Below, piece after piece: positions 1 through 9,233 of a stretch of 9,233 nt of DNA. The DNA is from a virus (lineage: Duplodnaviria; Heunggongvirae; Uroviricota; Caudoviricetes), in IMG/VR virus record IMGVR_UViG_2630968558_000007, positions 1 through 9,233 of that record; one strand, written 5' to 3'. How positions within the stretch are numbered: position 1 is the stretch's first letter; the number at the start of each line of letters is the position of its first letter. The notes below the pieces were generated by a model, which did no database searches, was not told where the DNA came from, and saw only the letters and a list, made by a program, of their open reading frames with translations. The translations under genes were made by a program, and so were the position numbers.

Positions 1-60
1 ATGAGTCACCTCTGGTTGAGAGTTTACTCACTTAGTCCTGTGTCCACTATTGGTGGGTAA
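1..60 (+). CDS. 3' end of an upstream late-operon gene (partial; by position possibly a gp20-like ejection protein)
   Basis: Frame 1 is open from the window edge to TAA at 58-60 (…SPVSTIGG*), immediately upstream of the gp16-like gene. Product inferred from synteny only. Confidence 0.3.
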   Translation: MSHLWLRVYSLSPVSTIGG

Positions 61-81
61 GATCATTCAATTTACGGTGGA

Positions 82-1923
82 ATGATGAAAGTAACTGCAA
101 ACGGTAAGACATTTACCTTTCCTGATGGTACGAGCACCGAAGATATTGGCACCGCCATTGATGAGTATTTTGCTGGTCAGGCTGTTCAGCAACAAACAGT
201 TAATCAGGCCAATAATGTACCAACACGGAAAGAACCATCATTGATGCAACAAGCTGGCGATTGGCTCACTGGTGGTCAAAGTGCAGGGCAAATTGCAGAA
301 CAGGCTGGTCGTGGTCTGGTAAACATACCATTTGACGTATTGCAGGGTGGCGCAAGTCTGATTAATGCAATCAGTCAGGGGCTTGGTGGGCCAAAAGTAT
401 TGGATGATGTCTATCGTCCAGTCGATCGACCGACAGACCCTTATGCGCAAGCTGGAGAAACAATTGGCGGGTATTTAGTTCCAGGAGTTGGAACGGCAGG
501 AAGCATGGCTATTGGATCACTGGCAGAGGCCGCAAATCAGAAAGGCGATTTCGCACAAAATGCAGCCAAAAATGCCGGAGTTAACCTTGCCGCTCAGGGG
601 GTTCTTTCCGCAGCAGCAAAGGGAATAGGGCGTGGAATAACGGCTATAAAAGGTGATATTTCGCCAGAAGTGGCGAAGAAAATTGCCACATCAGAATCGA
701 TGGGCGTGACACCAATGACATCTGATGTTATCCCGCCGAAAAATGCTTTCACTCGCGGCCTTACTCAGGATGCCGAGGGGGCTTTGCTCGGGACAGGCTC
801 AAAGCGAGCGGAGCAATATGCAACGCGTAGTAAGCTGGTAAGTAATTATTTTGACCGTTTTGGTGAGTACAACCCTGATGATGTGGTGAAATCTCTGACC
901 ACCACGTTAAGGGGGCGGAAGGATGCCGCTGGCGCTGTTATCAATGACGTCACCAATAAAATGGGTAATGCCGCAGTTGATACCACAAACACTATGAATG
1001 CTCTGAATACAGCGATCGCAAGACAGGAACGGCTTGGGACGTCTGCCAATCAAAGCCTGCTTACATCCTTGCGTAACCTACGTGAAGAATTAGCAAACCC
1101 TGCAACTGATTTGGATGTTACGTTTGATCTCCTGCGTCAGCACAGAACAGCATTTAGATCTAATGTTCAGGGAGATGCTATGGTCTTCCCCAACCAGGCA
1201 AAAGCAGCTACCAATATGGTAGAGAATGCAATGTCAAAAGACCTTCGTAACGCAGTTGCAAAAAACCTCGGTGCATCAGACGCAGCAAAATACCTTAAAG
1301 CAAATTCTGATTATGCAAACGTTTATAATAAGGTGCTTAATAAAAACATTGCTAACAAACTCAACAAGGCAAGCAGTGAAGCCAGCCCTGAACTTATAAA
1401 TACCGTTGTATTAAGCAGAAAACCATCTGACGTGAAACGAATATGGAGCGCACTGGATGATAAAGGGAAAGATGCTATGCGTGCAGCTTACGTCAGCAAA
1501 ATAGCGGAAAAGGCCGGTGACTCTCCAGCCAAGTTCATCACTGAAGTTAATAAGCTGAAATCTCAGTCAGGCGGTGAAATTTACAACACTATTTTTTCTG
1601 GAAAGCACATGAAAGAGCTTGATGCTCTTCATGAAGTTCTACAGCAAACAGCAAGGTCAGACACCGCAAATGTAGTAACTCAGACGGGGCAATCACAAGC
1701 CAACAGGATAAGGACGATTGGCGCAACTGCGACTCTTGGTGTATCAATGGGGCTTGAGGCTGGCTTTGGTGCAATGATGCGTTTGTATGAGTCCAAAGCA
1801 GCAAGGAATGCTCTCTTACGTCTGGCAAACACTAAAGCTGGAACGCCAGCCTATGAAAGAGCGTTGAATACCGCTGCAAATGCCATCAGGCCGCTGCTTG
1901 CTACTGAGGCAACACAGCAGTAA
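82..1923 (+). CDS. P22 gp16-like DNA ejection (injection) protein
   Basis: 613-aa ORF; N-terminus [18 protein letters not shown] resembles my recollection of P22 gp16; size close to gp16 (about 609 aa); Ala/Gly/Gln-rich composition typical of ejection proteins; last late gene before the immI region as in P22. Start may be ATG 85 rather than 82 (GGTGG at 76-80). Confidence 0.6.
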
Positions 1924-1947
1924 CGTATGGGGAATTGGATTCAATCG

Positions 1948-2337
1948 TTAACATTTTCTTTTTACTTTTCCAACAAAGGCTTTGGTTGAATCCATATTCC
2001 CATAACCAGAAATGGTTTTCGACATTAAAACTGTTCCATTAGGATGTATTACCCATGAGTCGATAACTCGTTGAGTTTCGCCATTCGCGCCGATTCCGAT
2101 GATGGAGTTTTTAGACAATGCTTTGTAAGCCATGCCGCCCGCATCCGTCCCAGAATATGTGATACTGGCATCTTCACCGTTTGTCTTAATGATGAATGTT
2201 CCACTAAAACCATCTTCTTCCGGTTGAAAATTATTTCGTTCTGAATAGCTTATTCCGTGCATATCTCCAACGACCCAGCACTCTGCTGAGACAGAAAACG
2301 AGAAGACAAAGAAAGCCATTGCTATAATCAATTTCAT
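1948..2337 (-). CDS. hypothetical secreted protein (predicted Sec signal peptide), third gene of the mnt operon
   Basis: 129-aa ORF. N-terminus MKLIIAMAFFVFSFSVSA|EC has a hydrophobic core and an AXA-like cleavage site, with no lipobox. Mature protein has Cys near both ends (ECWVV…KVKRKC). Start lies 15 nt after the stop of the upstream ORF, same strand as mnt. Visibly AT-rich. Confidence 0.55.
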   Translation of the reverse strand: MKLIIAMAFFVFSFSVSAECWVVGDMHGISYSERNNFQPEEDGFSGTFIIKTNGEDASITYSGTDAGGMAYKALSKNSIIGIGANGETQRVIDSWVIHPNGTVLMSKTISGYGNMDSTKAFVGKVKRKC

Positions 2338-2352
2338 TTTAAGCCCTTATTG

Positions 2353-2688
2353 TTATTGATTCTTTTTGCACGGAAATGTTTTTCCTACTGCTAGGGCGGT
2401 TAGTATAACTGCATTCTCATTTCTTGATTCTGGGTTTTTGTTTAGATATTTCTCAACGATATCGGTGTATTGATACATGTCAACGCCATCAGGAGGACAT
2501 AGAGAACCAATTAGTATCAATGAGTCAGTTACTCCGCGCAAATATCCAGTAATGTAAAGCGATGAAAAATCATCACCATTTTTACCTTGTTGAATGTTGT
2601 AAAGAAGGTCATTACCCGTTTGAAGCTCGCGCAGCTCAGCACTGGAAGAAGAGACAACTGCTAACAGGAACAGTGATAGAAATCTCAT
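2353..2688 (-). CDS. hypothetical secreted protein (predicted Sec signal peptide), translationally coupled to mnt
   Basis: 111-aa ORF. N-terminus MRFLSLFLLAVVSSSSA|EL is a signal peptide. Two Cys in the mature part (SLCPPDG, FPCKK). Its ATG overlaps the mnt stop in an ATGA arrangement (plus-strand tcat at 2685-2688). Confidence 0.55.
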   Translation of the reverse strand: MRFLSLFLLAVVSSSSAELRELQTGNDLLYNIQQGKNGDDFSSLYITGYLRGVTDSLILIGSLCPPDGVDMYQYTDIVEKYLNKNPESRNENAVILTALAVGKTFPCKKNQ

Positions 2689-2939
2689 TTCAAATCCTTT
2701 TCATAAATCTTTTTAAGTGTCTCAAACACTATAGCCTTGAACTGCTCGGCCTGCTGATCAGCCAAGCGTTCAGCTTCGTCGCGATATCCTGTAATCGGTG
2801 ATGGTTTTGATAGTGCATCCTGAACGATTTGTAATAACTCAGAGTTCATTGACCTTCCGTTAGCCTCGGCTCTTAATTTCAATTTTTCTCTTACTTCCAA
2901 AGGCATACGGAAGTTAAAGTGCGGATCATCTCTAGCCAT
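2685..2939 (-). CDS. mnt: Mnt repressor (ribbon-helix-helix maintenance repressor of immI)
   Basis: 84-aa product MARDDPHFNFRMPLEVREKLKLRAEANGRSMNSELLQIVQDALSKPSPITGY… is near-identical to P22 Mnt as I recall it. SD GGAGTGA upstream on the minus strand. Divergent from arc across the Pant/Pmnt region. Confidence 0.9.
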   Translation of the reverse strand: MARDDPHFNFRMPLEVREKLKLRAEANGRSMNSELLQIVQDALSKPSPITGYRDEAERLADQQAEQFKAIVFETLKKIYEKDLK

Positions 2940-2961
2940 GCCATCACTCCAAGTTAGTGTA

Positions 2962-2990
2962 TTGACATGATAGAAGCACTCTACTATATT
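2962..2990 (+). promoter_or_regulatory. Pant-like sigma70 promoter driving arc-ant (-35 TTGACA 2962-2967, 17-bp spacer, -10 TATATT 2985-2990)
   Basis: Consensus -35 and near-consensus -10 hexamers with a 17-bp spacer, directly upstream of arc. The Arc operator lies between the hexamers, as in P22 Pant. Confidence 0.7.
2967..2987. promoter_or_regulatory. Arc operator (ATGATAGAAGCACTCTACTAT)
   Basis: 21-bp sequence with TAGA/TCTA half-sites, matching the P22 arc operator from memory; sits in the Pant spacer. Confidence 0.8.
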
Positions 2991-2995
2991 CTCAA
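2967..2995 (-). promoter_or_regulatory. Pmnt-like promoter on the minus strand (-35 TTGAGA from 2995-2990, 17-bp spacer, -10 TATCAT from 2972-2967)
   Basis: Hexamers read on the minus strand with a 17-bp spacer, upstream of the mnt start; overlaps the Arc operator and abuts the Mnt operator. Hexamer assignment is by inspection only. Confidence 0.45.
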
Positions 2996-3015
2996 TAGGT
3001 CCACCGTGGACCTAT
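2995..3015. promoter_or_regulatory. Mnt operator (perfect palindrome ATAGGTCCACCGTGGACCTAT; 17-bp core 2997-3013)
   Basis: Perfect 21-bp inverted repeat. The 17-bp core is the reverse complement of the P22 Omnt sequence AGGTCCACGGTGGACCT as I recall it. It overlaps the predicted Pant start site. Confidence 0.8.
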
Positions 3016-3029
3016 ATTGTGAGGTGAAC

Positions 3030-3191
3030 ATGAAAGGAATGAGCAAAATGCCGCAGTTCAATTTGCGGTGGCCTAAAGAAGTATTGGATTTGGTACGCAA
3101 GGTGGCGGAAGAGAATGGTCGGTCTGTTAATTCTGAGATTTATCAGCGAGTAATGGAAAGCTTTAAGAAGGAAGGGCGCATTGGTGCGTAA
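3030..3191 (+). CDS. arc: Arc repressor (ribbon-helix-helix)
   Basis: Internal ATG at 3030 gives the 53-aa product [53 protein letters not shown], essentially P22 Arc. SD GAGGTG at 3021-3026. The 74-aa track ORF from 2967 runs back across the promoter and operators and is an over-extension. Confidence 0.9.
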
Positions 3192-3259
3192 AGTTGAAGC
3201 CCCAACTGCTGGAACAGTCAGGGCTTCGGTATCAACAAAACTTACGAGGTATTATTGAT

Positions 3260-4150
3260 ATGTCAAGCTTAGCAAAGTCAACTGTAAATTGCACTAATAG
3301 CATCATCATTTCTGACGTCAAGATTCATATGGATTCAGAGGGGCGTTACTCGCTTAATGACCTTCATGTAGCGTCTGGGAAGGAGGAAAAACATCAGCCA
3401 GCTTTCTTCATGCGTAGAAATGAAACTATTGAATTGATTAATGAAATTTTTAATTCTGCGGATATGCAGAATAAGAATCCCGTCCTTTCTAAGAAAGGTC
3501 GATATGGTGGAACCTACGTGTGCAAGGAGCTTGTTTACTCCTACGCCATGTGGATTAGTGCATCCTTTGCGCTGAAGGTTATCCGTGCATATGACGCAAT
3601 GGTTACTGCCACACAAGATAGGAAGGCTATTGGAGGTAAAACTTCAGTAGCTGAACGCACACCGCTACGAGATGCAGTAAACATGCTGGTAGGAAAGAAA
3701 GGACTTCGCTATGACGATGCATACAATATGGTTCATCAGCGTTTTGGTATTGACAGCATTGATGAACTTTCAATTGAACAAATCCCGCAAGCTGTAGAGT
3801 ACATCCACAGGGTGGTGCTTGAAGGTGAGTTCATCGGCAAACAAGAGAGGAAAGTCAACGAGCTTTCTGCAAAAGAAGCAAACAGCCTTGTATGGTTATG
3901 GGATTATGCCAACCGCTCACAGGCATTATTCCGCAAACTGTATCCGGCGCTGAAACAAATTCAATCGAACTATTCCGGCAGATGCTACGACTATGGTCAT
4001 GAGTTCTCGTATGTTATCGGAATGGCAAGAGACGTTTTAATAAACCACACACGAGATGTTGATATCAATGAGCCAGACGGACCAACGAATCTTTCCGCAT
4101 GGATGAGACTTAAGAATAAAGAATTACCTCCTTCAGTACATAACTACTGA
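3260..4150 (+). CDS. ant: antirepressor-like protein with N-terminal KilA-N domain (Ant position of immI)
   Basis: Position after arc as in P22. KilA-N-type motifs [13 protein letters not shown] and [25 protein letters not shown]. Preferred start is ATG 3260 (SD GAGGT at 3246-3250), giving 297 aa; the track ORF begins at TTG 3194, 2 nt after the arc stop and with no SD. Confidence 0.65.
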
Positions 4151-4169
4151 CAGATAACCAACGCAACGA

Positions 4170-4192
4170 CCCAGCTTCGGCTGGGTTTTTTT
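4170..4192 (+). terminator. Rho-independent terminator after ant (stem CCCAGC / GCTGGG, loop TTCG, then a 7-T run)
   Basis: Perfect 6-bp GC-rich stem at 4170-4175 and 4180-4185 with a 4-nt loop, followed directly by T7 at 4186-4192, about 20 nt after the ant stop. Confidence 0.7.
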
Positions 4193-4250
4193 ATGCCCAA
4201 AATTCACCGTAGCCATGCTGCGGCGATTCCTTGTATCTGGAGCAAATTAA

Positions 4251-6173
4251 ATGACAGACATTACAGCCAATGTGATTGTATCGATGCCTTCGCAACTCTT
4301 CACTATGGCACGTTCTTTTAAAGCCGTAGCCAATGGCAAAATTTATATAGGAAAAATTGACACTGACCCGGTAAATCCTGAAAACCAGATTCAGGTTTAT
4401 GTGGAGAATGAGGATGGTTCTCACGTTCCTGTTTCACAACCAATCATCATTAACGCTGCTGGATATCCGGTATATAACGGACAGATTGCCAAGTTCGTAA
4501 CTGTGCAAGGCCACTCTATGGCTGTTTATGATGCATATGGTGCGCAGCAGTTCTATTTTCCTAATGTGCTGAAGTACGACCCGGATCAGTTAAGGCAGCA
4601 GATTGAAGACCCTGATGGGGCAACCAAATATCCCGCATTGCAGATTTCTCGCTGGCGTGATGATTTAGACGTGCGTGGATGGGGAGTATTCCCGGATGGT
4701 ACAGATGTTACTGCTAAACTGTGTGAGGCATTGGATTATGCTAACGGTGATTATTCACAATTAGTTGAGTATGGGAAAAACAGAAAATCATTGCATATCC
4801 CTCCAGGCGATTATGTCGTTGATATGACCAAGCTGACTGGCATTCATGCTTCTGCTGGTCGCTTTGTGATCCGCTGTAACGTTGATTGTGTTGGCCGAAT
4901 CCCTAACGGGGATTTCCTAATCCTTCATAGTAAATCTATAAATGTAACTGGCCTTTCATGTAAATCGTTATACATTAGAGGGCTACAGTTTTCTATTATC
5001 TCGAACATTGATACGACCGGCGATATAAGATTTTTTTCATCAGACGCATACACTCTGCCTGGGTTGGTTGTATGGGGTGGCGGGAGTTATTGGAATCATT
5101 TTGTACGCATCAAAACAGGTACTGCGGCAGGTGGTGGCAGATTCATAATTGACATCTCTGATGGATCTATAAATCAAAATACATTTGAGCAGCTTTGCGG
5201 TGGTGGTCTGATCATAACTGGATCAGGTTTTAGTCGCCAGACCGGTGCTCCGTATGAGGGGAACGCAAACACATTTATAGGTCTTGACACATCGGGAAGC
5301 GGCGATTATTTGCTCTATAACAATAGCACCCCAAATCAGCATAATGTTGTGATAGGTTTGTATGGCGAGGTTACGGGCAATGGGAAAATACGTGGGCCGT
5401 GGACCATACTTGGCGCGCGTGCGCAATTTGGGGGCTGGGCCTCAACCATGAGCCCCATGAATACCATATTAGGGACAGACCCTACAGCAGGCTCACAGGG
5501 AGGAGAGACGTTCAGTGTCTCCGGTTCTAATCTTTGCCCTTCTGGAGATTGGTCGGTTATTGAAGGAGTCTACGGAGCACCGATTGACTTTTCCCTTTTA
5601 ACTATACCGAACGAACGAAAGGTTGGTTCTGACCCTAATGAACCATCTGGCTGCGGTAGATGGTTTGGAGTCACTAACGCATCTCAACGTTGCAGAATAA
5701 CCCTAAATTTAACTAAAACACAGTCAGGTTTCATTCGTGGAGCTTTTTACTTTAAAGGCGACACACCGCTTGAGATAGCTATAGAAGCTCAAGATGGTAC
5801 TAATACCATCTATATGCCAGTTAATATGTTCTACGATATGGGTGTTGGAGGGTGGAAGTTATACAAAGTTTCAGCGCCAACCAACGACAAAAGTAAAGCA
5901 TACAGATTAAGGATTACAGTTGAATCCGGAATGAGCGCTTATGTTGGAGGAGCGTATTTTAGCCAGTATAACGGAACCTTTCTTCCAGTATTCTGCGGAT
6001 GGGAGAAAGTAAAAATGAGATCTAGCGTAAAGCCTACTGTGACAGAGAACACAGGTTCTTTCCCAATCGGCTTGGTGTCCTACAGAACATCTCCAGCAAC
6101 ATATCCTTCCGACCCTACTGTCCAATGGGTGTGGAATGGAAGTACATGGGGGATTGTGAATATTTCTGCCTAA
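4251..6173 (+). CDS. tailspike protein (P22 gp9 / Sf6-type head-binding domain fused to a divergent receptor-binding domain)
   Basis: First ~113 aa ([50 protein letters not shown]…NVLKYDPDQ) are near-identical to the Sf6/HK620/P22 tailspike head-binding domain as recalled. The remaining ~525 aa are Gly/Ser/Thr/Asn-rich and consistent with a beta-helix receptor-binding domain. SD GGAG at 4239-4242. Confidence 0.9.
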
Positions 6174-6178
6174 CCAAT

Positions 6179-6203
6179 AGCGGCATGCTTCAAACATGCC
6201 GCT
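6179..6203. terminator. hairpin between convergent tailspike and acyltransferase genes (possible bidirectional terminator)
   Basis: Perfect 9-bp stem AGCGGCATG / CATGCCGCT with a 7-nt loop, 6 nt after the tailspike stop and just before the acyltransferase stop. No strong U-tract on either strand, so terminator function is uncertain. Confidence 0.35.
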
Positions 6204-6209
6204 TCAAAA

Positions 6210-7307
6210 TTATCTTGGAATATTTTTCTCGATATATTTATAGCTTAGTAGTGCAAAAGCTACAGATGTTATAAATACAATAAAAATAAACGAGAAGCTT
6301 TTTGATAAATCAGCCATCCCAAGCCAATCTATCATCTTAAAGCATAATATAAACGTAATTGGATGAACTAAATACAAAGAGTATGAAGCATCACCAATCA
6401 TGATGAAAATACGTGGTATTTTGATGTTGTCTTGTATGTAGTCAGAGCATGCAGTAAAGCATGCAAACATTATGCAAAAATATTTCCCTGAATGAAAAAT
6501 CCCATGCCCAGCATCAAACTGTGTTATGTAAGCCCATACAGGGATTATGATTCCAATCGAAATTAATGGTATTGCAATCCTTTTGTCTCTAATTGAAAAG
6601 TTACCACTTTTGTATAGGATAGCAATAATCGCACCGAAGACAAACTCCCAAATCAGGCTTTGCATGGTTAAATTTATATATCCTAAACCTTCAATTTTTG
6701 GTCTGTCGAATACACCCGCAATAGATGGCAAAGCTAACAGTGTAATGAAAAACCATAATATATAAAATGTATACCTAAACTTCCCCAGCGCTATTCCAAT
6801 GGCGCAAACTAAATAAAAATATATTTCATAATTGAGGGTCCATCCAACGAACAATGATGGAGGCCCAAAGTATATAGGTGACTCAGTGTTTAGTGGAATG
6901 AAAAGCAAACCTTTGATTATGTTTGTTAATTCAAATGAGCTAGATGATTGGTTATATGAAAACCCATGCATTAAAGATAAATCAACATTTTTAACAATGA
7001 CTATATATGCAATAGTCATGATGAAATATAGAGGCCAAACTCTTAAGAAACGTTTTTTAATAAACTTTATCAAATCATTGCTTTGGTAGCTATGAGACGT
7101 ATAAATTATGATAAAACCACTAATGATGAAAAATAAATCAACTCCGAATGCACCAGGCCAAAATAATCGCTGAGCCAGCCATTCATATTCTGTTCCTTTC
7201 AAAAAATCCCTTGCATGGCAAAGTACGACAAGCATAGCTGCAATAGCCCTAAGCGCCTGTATATACTGAAGGTTATTCTTTCTTGGTGGACTGTTATCGA
7301 TTTCCAA
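6210..7307 (-). CDS. acyltransferase-3 family integral membrane protein (O-antigen acetyltransferase, Oac-like serotype-conversion candidate)
   Basis: 365-aa polytopic hydrophobic protein with acyltransferase-3 signatures: N-terminal LRAIAAMLVVLCH, FGVDLFFIISGF, C-terminal SYSLYLVHP. Sits between tailspike and integrase where Sf6 carries oac. Visibly AT-rich. Apparent TTG start at 7307 with AGGTG 4 nt upstream. Confidence 0.8.
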   Translation of the reverse strand: MEIDNSPPRKNNLQYIQALRAIAAMLVVLCHARDFLKGTEYEWLAQRLFWPGAFGVDLFFIISGFIIIYTSHSYQSNDLIKFIKKRFLRVWPLYFIMTIAYIVIVKNVDLSLMHGFSYNQSSSSFELTNIIKGLLFIPLNTESPIYFGPPSLFVGWTLNYEIYFYLVCAIGIALGKFRYTFYILWFFITLLALPSIAGVFDRPKIEGLGYINLTMQSLIWEFVFGAIIAILYKSGNFSIRDKRIAIPLISIGIIIPVWAYITQFDAGHGIFHSGKYFCIMFACFTACSDYIQDNIKIPRIFIMIGDASYSLYLVHPITFILCFKMIDWLGMADLSKSFSFIFIVFITSVAFALLSYKYIEKNIPR

Positions 7308-7405
7308 AATACACCTATAATAGTTTTTTGATAAGTATCAGTAGCTTCTGAAAGGTCTGAAGTTTAGCACCACAAACGCTATTGATCGACACCGCCGATC
7401 AGTAA

Positions 7406-7425
7406 TACTGTATTAATATACAGTA
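7406..7425. promoter_or_regulatory. LexA (SOS) box TACTGTATTAATATACAGTA
   Basis: Perfect 20-bp palindrome fitting the E. coli LexA consensus CTGT-N8-ACAG; 17 nt upstream of the umuD'-like start codon, with SD GGAGGTGA at 7432-7439. Confidence 0.8.
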
Positions 7426-7442
7426 TCCATCGGAGGTGAGTT

Positions 7443-7829
7443 ATGGGATTCCCGAGTCCAGCACAAGACTACGTTGAAGAGCGCATATCGCTCGACAAGT
7501 GCATCATAAGCAGGCCAGCGGCAACGTACTTCATGCGAGCGGGTGCGACGCACTACCGGGAAGGTATCCTGAATGGCGCGCTGCTGGTTGTGGATGCTTC
7601 GCTATCACCATGCGACGGCTCATTACTTGTTTGCAGAATGGAAGGTGAGCTGAGGATTAAGCGATACCGCAAATCACCCAAGGTTCACCTGGAAGATTTG
7701 CAGACAGGAAGAAGGGAGGCTATACCTCTGCACGATGACGGAACGAGCCCTGATGCGATATTTGGCGTAATCACCTACATCATCAACGATGCGCGGACGG
7801 GTGAGTTTGATGATTGCCCGGTGATGTGA
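7443..7829 (+). CDS. UmuD'-like protein (S24 LexA/UmuD-family C-terminal domain, N-terminally pre-truncated, predicted non-catalytic)
   Basis: 128 aa. MGFPSPAQDYVEERISLD…ATYF… aligns with E. coli UmuD from Gly25 onward (UmuD: C|GFPSPAADYVEQRIDLN…SATYF). The UmuD GDSM catalytic-Ser motif is replaced by ATHY; the Lys-containing region is retained (ELRIKRY vs EFTVKKL). Strong SD, LexA box upstream, no umuC-like gene in the window. Confidence 0.8.
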   Translation: MGFPSPAQDYVEERISLDKCIISRPAATYFMRAGATHYREGILNGALLVVDASLSPCDGSLLVCRMEGELRIKRYRKSPKVHLEDLQTGRREAIPLHDDGTSPDAIFGVITYIINDARTGEFDDCPVM

Positions 7830-7899
7830 GACAGAAATGAGACACAAAAAGCTTTGCACTGAATTGCAAGGCTTAGTGCTGTCAGAGATATAGCGTTGG

Positions 7900-9057
7900 T
7901 TAGCCCACCTTTTCATCAAGCCAATCCGCCCACCACTGCATCATCTCCCTGCGCTTATCGAGATACTGAGCATGGTTGTAAATTCCACGCACAGATCCGC
8001 CATTGGCATGTGCCAGTTGCACTTCAATAGCATCAGCAGGCCATTCGTGCTCGTTCATAATCGTACTGAATTCATGCCTGAATCCGTGACCGCTTTCCAG
8101 ACCCTCATAGCCGATTTGTTTGATCACAAGTAATACCGCGTTCTCGCAGATTGGCTTCTTCTTATCATTACGCCCGGCAAAAACAAACTCTGATACTGGT
8201 TTGGTGATGGAGCTTAACGTAGTGAGAAGTTCAACCACTTGGTCCGACATCGGGACCACATGAATCTTGCGTCCCTTCATCACACTGGCGTCGATAGTGA
8301 TAATCCTGTTTTCAAAATCGACGTTCTTCCATAGCATAGAACGAAGCTCTTTCGTTCTTAGGGCTGTGTAGCGTAAAACTTTGGTCGCAATGAGCGATAC
8401 GATACTTCCTGAAAATGTTGCCAGTGCTTTGTTGAATGTCGGGATCTGGTCTGCAGGAAGAAACGGGAAGTTCTTCTTGCGGTATCCCTTCATGGCGTCA
8501 GCAAGATCAGGTGCCGGGTTATATTTAGCCCTTCCGGTGACAATAGCGTAACGGAAAACCTCGCCGCATCTTCTGCGTGCTTTGTTGGCTCGTTCCATTG
8601 CACCGCGATCTTCAAACCTGCGGATTACTTCAAGAAGTTGCATCGGCTCAATATCCTGAATTTCAAGACCGCCGATGATGGGTAAAATGTCGTCATCAAA
8701 CATTTTGGCAAGTTCAGTCGTATACCCTACAGACCAGACTTGCTTCTTGTGCTCGTACCATTCCTTGTAAATGGCGCTAAAGGAATTGTTGTTAGACGAA
8801 GCCTTTTTCGCCTTTACCGGATCGATGCCAACCGAGATGTCTTTCCTCGCAGTCCATGCTTTATCCCTTGCCTCTTGCAAAGTCATAAGCGGATATTTTC
8901 CGACGGTCAGGATTTTCTCCTTACCGTCAATCTTGTAGCGAAGCTGCCATACCTTTTTCCCTGACACAGGGACATAAAGGTACAGGCCATTACCATCGAG
9001 AAGGCGGTATGGTTTTTCTTTCGGCTTTGCTGCTTCAATCTGCTTAACGGTGAGCAT
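7900..9057 (-). CDS. int: P4-type tyrosine integrase (IntS-like, tRNA-Arg-associated)
   Basis: Product from ATG 9057 is 385 aa, MLTVKQIEAAKPKEKPYRLLDGNGLYLYVPVSGKKVWQLRY… (P4-type N-terminal arm-binding domain), with C-terminal catalytic motifs HGFRHEF and RGIYNHAQY. The track ORF extends to GTG 9093, a less likely start. Adjacent to a tRNA-Arg 3' end, like E. coli K-12 intS next to argW. Confidence 0.9.
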   Translation of the reverse strand: MLTVKQIEAAKPKEKPYRLLDGNGLYLYVPVSGKKVWQLRYKIDGKEKILTVGKYPLMTLQEARDKAWTARKDISVGIDPVKAKKASSNNNSFSAIYKEWYEHKKQVWSVGYTTELAKMFDDDILPIIGGLEIQDIEPMQLLEVIRRFEDRGAMERANKARRRCGEVFRYAIVTGRAKYNPAPDLADAMKGYRKKNFPFLPADQIPTFNKALATFSGSIVSLIATKVLRYTALRTKELRSMLWKNVDFENRIITIDASVMKGRKIHVVPMSDQVVELLTTLSSITKPVSEFVFAGRNDKKKPICENAVLLVIKQIGYEGLESGHGFRHEFSTIMNEHEWPADAIEVQLAHANGGSVRGIYNHAQYLDKRREMMQWWADWLDEKVG

Positions 9058-9218
9058 GGGTAAAAATCCGGTGGGTAAAATTATTTTATCCACTTTTTAC
9101 CCGTCATGGAGTGCGGCTGTCAACGATCTGACGCGAACCATTACGAACTGTGAATCTACGGAAGGCTTGATATTCAGGGGATTTTGCGGACTGGTACGGA
9201 TGGGAGCGAACTGATAAA

Positions 9219-9233
9219 TGGTGTCCCCTGCAG
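9219..9233 (-). tRNA. argW: 3' terminal segment of tRNA-Arg (argW-like), cut by the window edge; attachment-site core or end of the intact tRNA gene
   Basis: Reverse complement of 9219-9233 is CTGCAGGGGACACCA, matching the 3' end (…TTCGATTCCTGCAGGGGACACCA) of E. coli tRNA-Arg(CCU) argW as I recall it. Same orientation as int and about 160 bp upstream of its start. Only 15 nt are visible. Confidence 0.5.

Follow-up and report, generated by a model that had tools for sequence, protein, structure and literature searches.

The 9,233-nt stretch of viral DNA analyzed here (the window) ends in a sequence that matches the 3' end of a tRNA gene, and this locus raises the question of whether the window stops at the junction between an integrated prophage and its host chromosome or at the attP of free phage DNA. 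A first-pass annotation, made from the letters of the window, had proposed the former.

A 16-bp attachment core closes the window

The 3' end of the window reads ...GAACTGATAAATGGTGTCCCCTGCAG. Positions 9219-9233 (TGGTGTCCCCTGCAG) are the reverse complement of CTGCAGGGGACACCA, the 3' end of a 75-nt tRNA-Arg with the anticodon CCT, so that the terminal 15 nt of the tRNA lie on the minus strand and position 9218 is the first base beyond it. Together, positions 9218-9233 form the 16-bp att core, ATGGTGTCCCCTGCAG, which is common to phage attP and bacterial argW. The complete tRNA was called by ARAGORN in a segment of the complete chromosome CP025979.1 (segment coordinates 9765-9839), and it is identical to E. 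coli argW and to the tRNA annotated in E. coli 631. In the 9,233-nt window, ARAGORN found no tRNA because merely 15 of the 75 nt are present there. The core occurs once in the window, even with up to two mismatches tolerated, and in none of 200 dinucleotide-preserving shuffles. It aligns exactly with the annotated attP cores of HK620 (1368-1383) and Sf6 (18099-18114). Likewise, the KplE1 (CPS-53) prophage of E. coli K-12 resides in argW and is flanked by a duplicated 16-nt core, CTGCAGGGGACACCAT (PMC2951348), which is the reverse complement of window positions 9218-9233.

The first-pass annotation had read the last 15 nt as the reverse complement of the tRNA-Arg(CCU) 3' end and had placed the tRNA in the same orientation as int. 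The ARAGORN-called tRNA of CP025979.1 bears out the match, and both the tRNA and int (7900-9057) are on the minus strand. Although 15 nt is a short match and no tRNA is called within the window, a coincidence with no biological meaning is ruled out for practical purposes by the shuffles, by a position that is exactly that of the annotated attP cores, by the thousands of E. coli genomes in which intS adjoins a tRNA-Arg carrying the 15-nt sequence, and by the continuation of the same-strain genome into the tRNA.

The same-strain chromosome continues into an intact argW

Past the core, attP sequences continue with ACATCTACTTGAAG..., whereas prophage junctions continue with GAATCGAACCTGCAA..., the remainder of the tRNA. 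The final base of the window is the last one common to both, and the window by itself is therefore undecidable between attP and a prophage junction. An exact-pattern scan of IMG/VR found the final 101 nt unchanged in 14 contigs, of which 11 run into the tRNA, two (both metagenome-derived) run into the phage torI arm, and one ends there. The caveat attached to the original proposal, that the match could equally be the attP core, was thus justified, since contigs identical over 101 nt go both ways.

The choice is made by sequence from outside the window. The window is the whole of draft contig JNBP01000177.1 (9233 nt, assembly GCA_000807695.3), and the complete chromosome CP025979.1 (GCA_002900365.1) is 100% identical to it across all 9233 nt; both records came up when the integrase was used for an exact-protein look-up. 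We take GCA_000807695.3 to represent strain HT073016, on the basis of the 100% identity, which includes a strain-specific IS junction. Window positions 2989-9233 correspond to CP025979.1 1-6245 with no mismatches, and positions 1-2988 correspond to 4668335-4671322. CP025979 and GCA_002900365.1 represent the PacBio-sequenced type strain of Escherichia marmotae, HT073016 (PMC6650469; PMC11546641). Beyond the base matching position 9233, this chromosome continues with GAATCGAACCTGCAATTAGCCCTTAGGAGGGGCTCGTTATATCCATTTAACTAAGAGGAC (GAATCGAACCTGCAATTAGCCC...), the remaining 60 nt of an intact argW, and yfdC and mlaA come next, as they do in K-12. Contig 38 of Logan SRR6001585, an independent second assembly, carries the same prophage with two mismatches over window positions 64-9233. 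Its junction is unchanged, and in its flanking chromosomal sequence 1 of 2690 bases departs from CP025979.1. In both the chromosome and the Logan contig, the junction leads into an intact tRNA-Arg(CCU) beside yfdC.

The integrated state, which the first-pass annotation could offer as an inference from K-12, is demonstrated by these external sequences. Both checks that bear on it, extending the sequence past position 9233 and calling the tRNA, came out as proposed: the chromosome and the Logan contig continue into tRNA-Arg(CCU), followed in CP025979.1 by yfdC and mlaA, and ARAGORN reports an intact tRNA-Arg(CCT).

An origin from free or circular phage DNA, in which the last 16 nt would merely be the attP core with no prophage-chromosome junction, draws on the attP of HK620 and Sf6, where the 16-mer and the arm before it are identical, and on the two metagenome-derived contigs that share the final 101 nt and enter the torI arm. 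We consider it very improbable, because the source contig belongs to a bacterial isolate assembly, the finished chromosome of the same strain joins the identical 9233 nt to argW-yfdC-mlaA, and the element contains a copy of ISEc16, as is typical of a resident prophage. As the sole state, free phage is refuted by CP025979.1; it is probably true in part, for an excised subpopulation that exists alongside the integrated form. We conclude, with a probability of roughly 0.95, that positions 9058-9233 are the integrase-side att junction of a P22-like prophage inserted in the 3' end of argW in E. marmotae HT073016. The present analysis itself shows the sequence identity, the continuation into a tRNA that is intact, and where the far core lies, while the core and the recombination module are taken from the literature.

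The opposite end carries torI and a second core

A search with the gp20/IS junction pattern led to the contig IMGVR_UViG_2630968558_000001 (30709 nt), which, like the window, starts 65 nt inside the IS and is 100% identical to CP025979.1 over the parts compared. At its far end, a protein search with a TorI/HkaC-like ORF revealed a 66-aa gene that is 100% identical to the TorI/HkaC-type query. The core begins 76 nt past this gene, at the end of the contig (3275-3290 of the retrieved end segment). The contig finishes with ...CCTCAAGTAGATGT followed directly by CTGCAGGGGACACCAT (...AGATGT, then the core), and its last base coincides with the core's outer edge. This far end aligns throughout with the attR of K-12, core included, with seven mismatches. 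The two contigs overlap at the 16-bp core only, and the element thus has, on a same-strain contig, a TorI/HkaC gene and a second core copy at the end opposite the integrase. A direct repeat of the tRNA 3' segment far from the window had been proposed as a further check, and it is supplied by this second core; the expectation that the junction would allow the whole element to be delimited was likewise realized with the neighboring contig.

From these ends, the phage genome would be about 39.8 kb plus a 1244-bp ISEc16. Extrapolation from the draft contig predicts the far core at approximately 4636512-4636527 of CP025979.1, and the predicted element spans approximately 4636512..4671322 plus 1..6245. 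The order expected at the far junction of this chromosome is the chromosomal flank, ATGGTGTCCCCTGCAG, and then ACATCTACTTGAGGCGGCAGGGG... (the torI arm). When species-representative genomes were scanned for the core plus ACATCTAC, three E. coli records were returned and no E. marmotae. Position 1 of CP025979.1 equals window position 2989, which lies in the prophage, between mnt and arc. The prophage therefore runs across the origin of the record, and prediction tools that assume a linear record would cut it in two or overlook it. The torI-side chromosomal flanks of argW-integrated prophages fall into at least five unrelated sequence types, a diversity that indicates a variable hotspot with tandem or remnant elements downstream of argW.

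The integrase and its att arm belong to a known recombination module

The integrase-proximal att arm (attL in the KplE1 nomenclature) occupies positions 9058..9217 on the minus strand. Window positions 9040-9233 match the KplE1 attL of K-12 at 189 of 194 positions (~97%) and HK620 at 190 of 194. In HK620, the region matching this arm is annotated with attP repeats and a promoter for 'prophage excision', and a sigma-70-like promoter match on the minus strand (9107-9080) falls inside the region that HK620 annotates as the excision promoter. In KplE1, experiments have located the arm-type sites of IntS, the sites bound by TorI, and the promoter of intS, which is autoregulated (PMC2951348). By homology, the att arm of the window contains putative counterparts of all three.

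Next to the arm, positions 7900..9057 on the minus strand encode an intS-type tyrosine integrase of 385 aa with the Pfam domains Arm-DNA-bind_3, Phage_int_M, and Phage_integrase, which is identical to K-12 IntS at 382 of 384 aa. It lies beside the core, which overlaps the 3' end of argW at the junction, in the same orientation as the tRNA and with transcription directed away from it. A megablast search with positions 7800-9233 matched 2239 E. coli records (more than 1800 genomes) at ~95-97% identity, annotated 'intS ... tRNA-Arg', as well as phages HK633, Kapi1, and others, and HK620, Sf6, and CUS-3, which fall in the same identity range for int.

The mechanism would then be that of the KplE1/HK620 recombination module. 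The IntS tyrosine recombinase would swap strands inside the 16-bp core that is identical in phage and argW. The phage copy of the core would restore the last 15 nt of the tRNA, and the tRNA gene would stay intact because of this. Integration would place intS beside the tRNA, driven by its own promoter within the att arm, and the excision factor TorI/HkaC would come to lie at the opposite end of the prophage.

The window belongs to a P22-like prophage interrupted by ISEc16

The element is a P22-like (Lederbergvirus; Sf6/HK620/CUS-3 type) prophage. By Pfam, the window and the adjoining chromosome together contain a P22-type virion module, an immI region, and a tailspike with a P22 head-binding domain. 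The chromosome upstream of the window contributes P22-type portal, scaffold, coat, gp4, gp10, gp26, gp7, and gp20.

The left contig break coincides with the terminal 65 nt of ISEc16, an IS3-family element (1..65). Positions 1-63 had no match in related prophages; in 577 E. coli records, they match ISEc16/IS3-family transposase elements at 100% identity. In CP025979.1, the full 1244-bp IS is present at 4667156-4668399 with a TTC target duplication. The point of insertion precedes the stop codon of the gp20-like ejection gene by 17 nt and lies immediately upstream of gp16. ISEc16 is recorded in 14 chromosomal copies (Table 2, PMC6650469), and its size agrees with that of the 1244-bp IS. The insertion is absent from the near-identical prophage of Logan SRR6001585. 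It may be polar on gp16, and the prophage may be defective for infection. The left part of the window had been described as pointing into the prophage interior, which holds for the prophage genes from position 85 onward, whereas the left end itself is the end of ISEc16.

The first of these genes (85..1923, plus strand) encodes a P22 gp16-type DNA ejection protein (PF26808, Phage_P22_gp16, precomputed annotation), called 'DNA transfer protein' in E. coli prophage annotation. It is followed by a P22 immI-like region (1948..4150, mixed strands) with a 129-aa ORF, a Rap1a-family immunity protein, Mnt, Arc, and the Ant antirepressor, for which the Pfam matches are Rap1a, Arc plus Repressor_Mnt, Arc, and KilA-N plus P22_AR_C. 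The 129-aa ORF protein is widespread, and its look-up gave only unrelated E. coli lysogens. The Rap1a/Tai-family gene (type VI secretion effector immunity; 2353-2688, minus strand) adjoins mnt and is kept in many P22-like prophages of E. coli.

The tailspike (4251..6173, plus strand) is 640 aa long and has a P22-type head-binding N-terminal domain (Pfam Head_binding, E=6.5e-67). Its family matches are confined to this domain, and its nucleotide similarity to Sf6, IME10, and others is N-terminal only. On the opposite strand, positions 6210..7307 encode a membrane O-acyltransferase (Acyl_transf_3, PF01757, E=1e-28), which, from its family and its location in the position of Sf6 oac, is a candidate O-antigen conversion gene. 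The host O antigen is O38 / S. dysenteriae type 8 (PMC6650469), and the tailspike and acyltransferase pair may recognize and modify this antigen. The same pair is present at 98% identity in one IMG/VR contig, which ends at window position 7829, just short of the int module.

Between the acyltransferase and int lies an accessory 'moron' gene (7443..7829, plus strand) for a HumD/UmuD-like S24 peptidase (Pfam Peptidase_S24), which scores 215 bits with the HumD equivalog model NF051876 (cut-off 120 bits). HumD is a translesion-polymerase subunit family. A HumD-like gene at this position is absent in Sf6, HK620, and CUS-3 and present in some argW prophages of E. coli.

Contig ends at the core edges suggest excised phage DNA

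The window stops at the edge of the core because a draft-assembly contig ends there. In one assembly, each edge of the 16-bp core coincides exactly with a contig end, and the IS-side ends of both contigs reach 65 nt into the repeat. A 16-bp repeat is by itself too short to cause a break, given that these contigs run 65 nt into a real one. A contig that ends at the last shared base implies two differing continuations after that sequence: the int arm and core would be followed by the tRNA in the integrated form and by the torI arm in the excised form, and the core and torI arm would likewise be preceded both by the int arm and by the chromosomal flank. We infer that breaks at the core edges are to be expected only from reads that included junctions of both kinds, integrated and excised. 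Judged from the contig ends, the sequenced culture rather probably contained, in addition to the integrated prophage, a substantial fraction of excised (attP-form) phage DNA. A similar signature is seen in two other isolate contigs, one of which ends at the same base and the other 4 nt past the core.

The ends could instead be technical, arising from a coverage drop, trimming, or another copy of the int arm, with the prophage stably integrated in all cells. A short noncoding duplicate of the int arm is possible, the number of exact IntS protein copies seen in CP025979.1 being one. This explanation appears less likely, because two independent ends fall exactly on the core edges while the IS-side ends go well into their repeat, the core on its own is too short to interrupt such an assembly, contigs that stop at the last shared base need two different continuations past the int arm and core, and other isolate contigs bear the same signature. 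If the sequenced culture did hold both forms, a P22-like prophage with ISEc16 between its gp20 and gp16 ejection genes would remain excision-proficient, and contig ends at att-core boundaries could be used, without recourse to reads, to flag prophages that induce spontaneously in draft genomes.

Significance

The argW/IntS/TorI module, its 16-nt core, and Sf6-like phages with O-antigen-modifying genes beside int are textbook knowledge. What we describe is this well-studied attachment module, now seen in E. marmotae on a P22-like prophage. One boundary of the prophage is fixed, and with the neighboring contig the whole element is delimited, which is of use for annotating the E. marmotae type-strain genome and leaves the biology itself unchanged. 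As a methodological by-product, contig breaks at att-core edges point to a mixture of integrated and excised phage DNA.

Comparison with known phages and prophages

The best coverage of the whole window was 30% in the phage collection and 61% in the E. coli genome collection. KplE1 (CPS-53) shares with the present element the argW site and the duplicated 16-nt core (PMC2951348), the nearly identical IntS (382/384 aa) and int-side arm (~97%), a torI-side arm and torI at ~98%, and yfdC as the neighbor. However, KplE1 is a 10.2-kb remnant with gtrABS-type yfdGHI and without virion genes, whereas the prophage of E. marmotae is full-length (~39.8 kb), and the genes beside its int are for an acyltransferase and a HumD-like protein, not gtr genes.

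The int/att/RDF module and the argW target are also shared with HK620 and CUS-3, as well as with Kapi1, phiv205-1, and HK633. The HK620 record annotates the 16-bp attP core, the CUS-3 prophage record continues into the same argW sequence, and Kapi1 is described as argW-integrated. The group differs in tailspikes and conversion genes, and no deposited phage covers more than 30% of the window by megablast.

The first-pass annotation had drawn its parallel with argW-intS-gtrABS of K-12. For the site and the integrase, this parallel stands; for the conversion genes it does not, since a gtrABC-type cassette (GtrA flippase, GtrB bactoprenol glucosyltransferase, and a serotype-specific Gtr) was not found beside int, where the window has the HumD-like S24 peptidase and Acyl_transf_3 and K-12 has yfdG/H/I. 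The proposed order of int, conversion gene, and tailspike is real, except that the HumD-like gene intervenes between the conversion gene and int.

The Shigella phage Sf6 has the same order of tailspike, O-acyltransferase (on the opposite strand), int, and attP core; its int-att region is 96% identical, and both have P22-like virion genes. In contrast, the acyltransferase of the window is only 23% identical to Sf6 Oac, the receptor-binding part of the tailspike is unrelated at the DNA level, and the E. marmotae element has in addition the HumD-like gene and an immI region with a Rap1a-family gene. The hosts differ as well, S. flexneri for Sf6 and E. marmotae O38 here. Overall, the closest parallel to this locus is Sf6, with its tailspike, O-acyltransferase, int, and att, and not the gtrABS arrangement of K-12.
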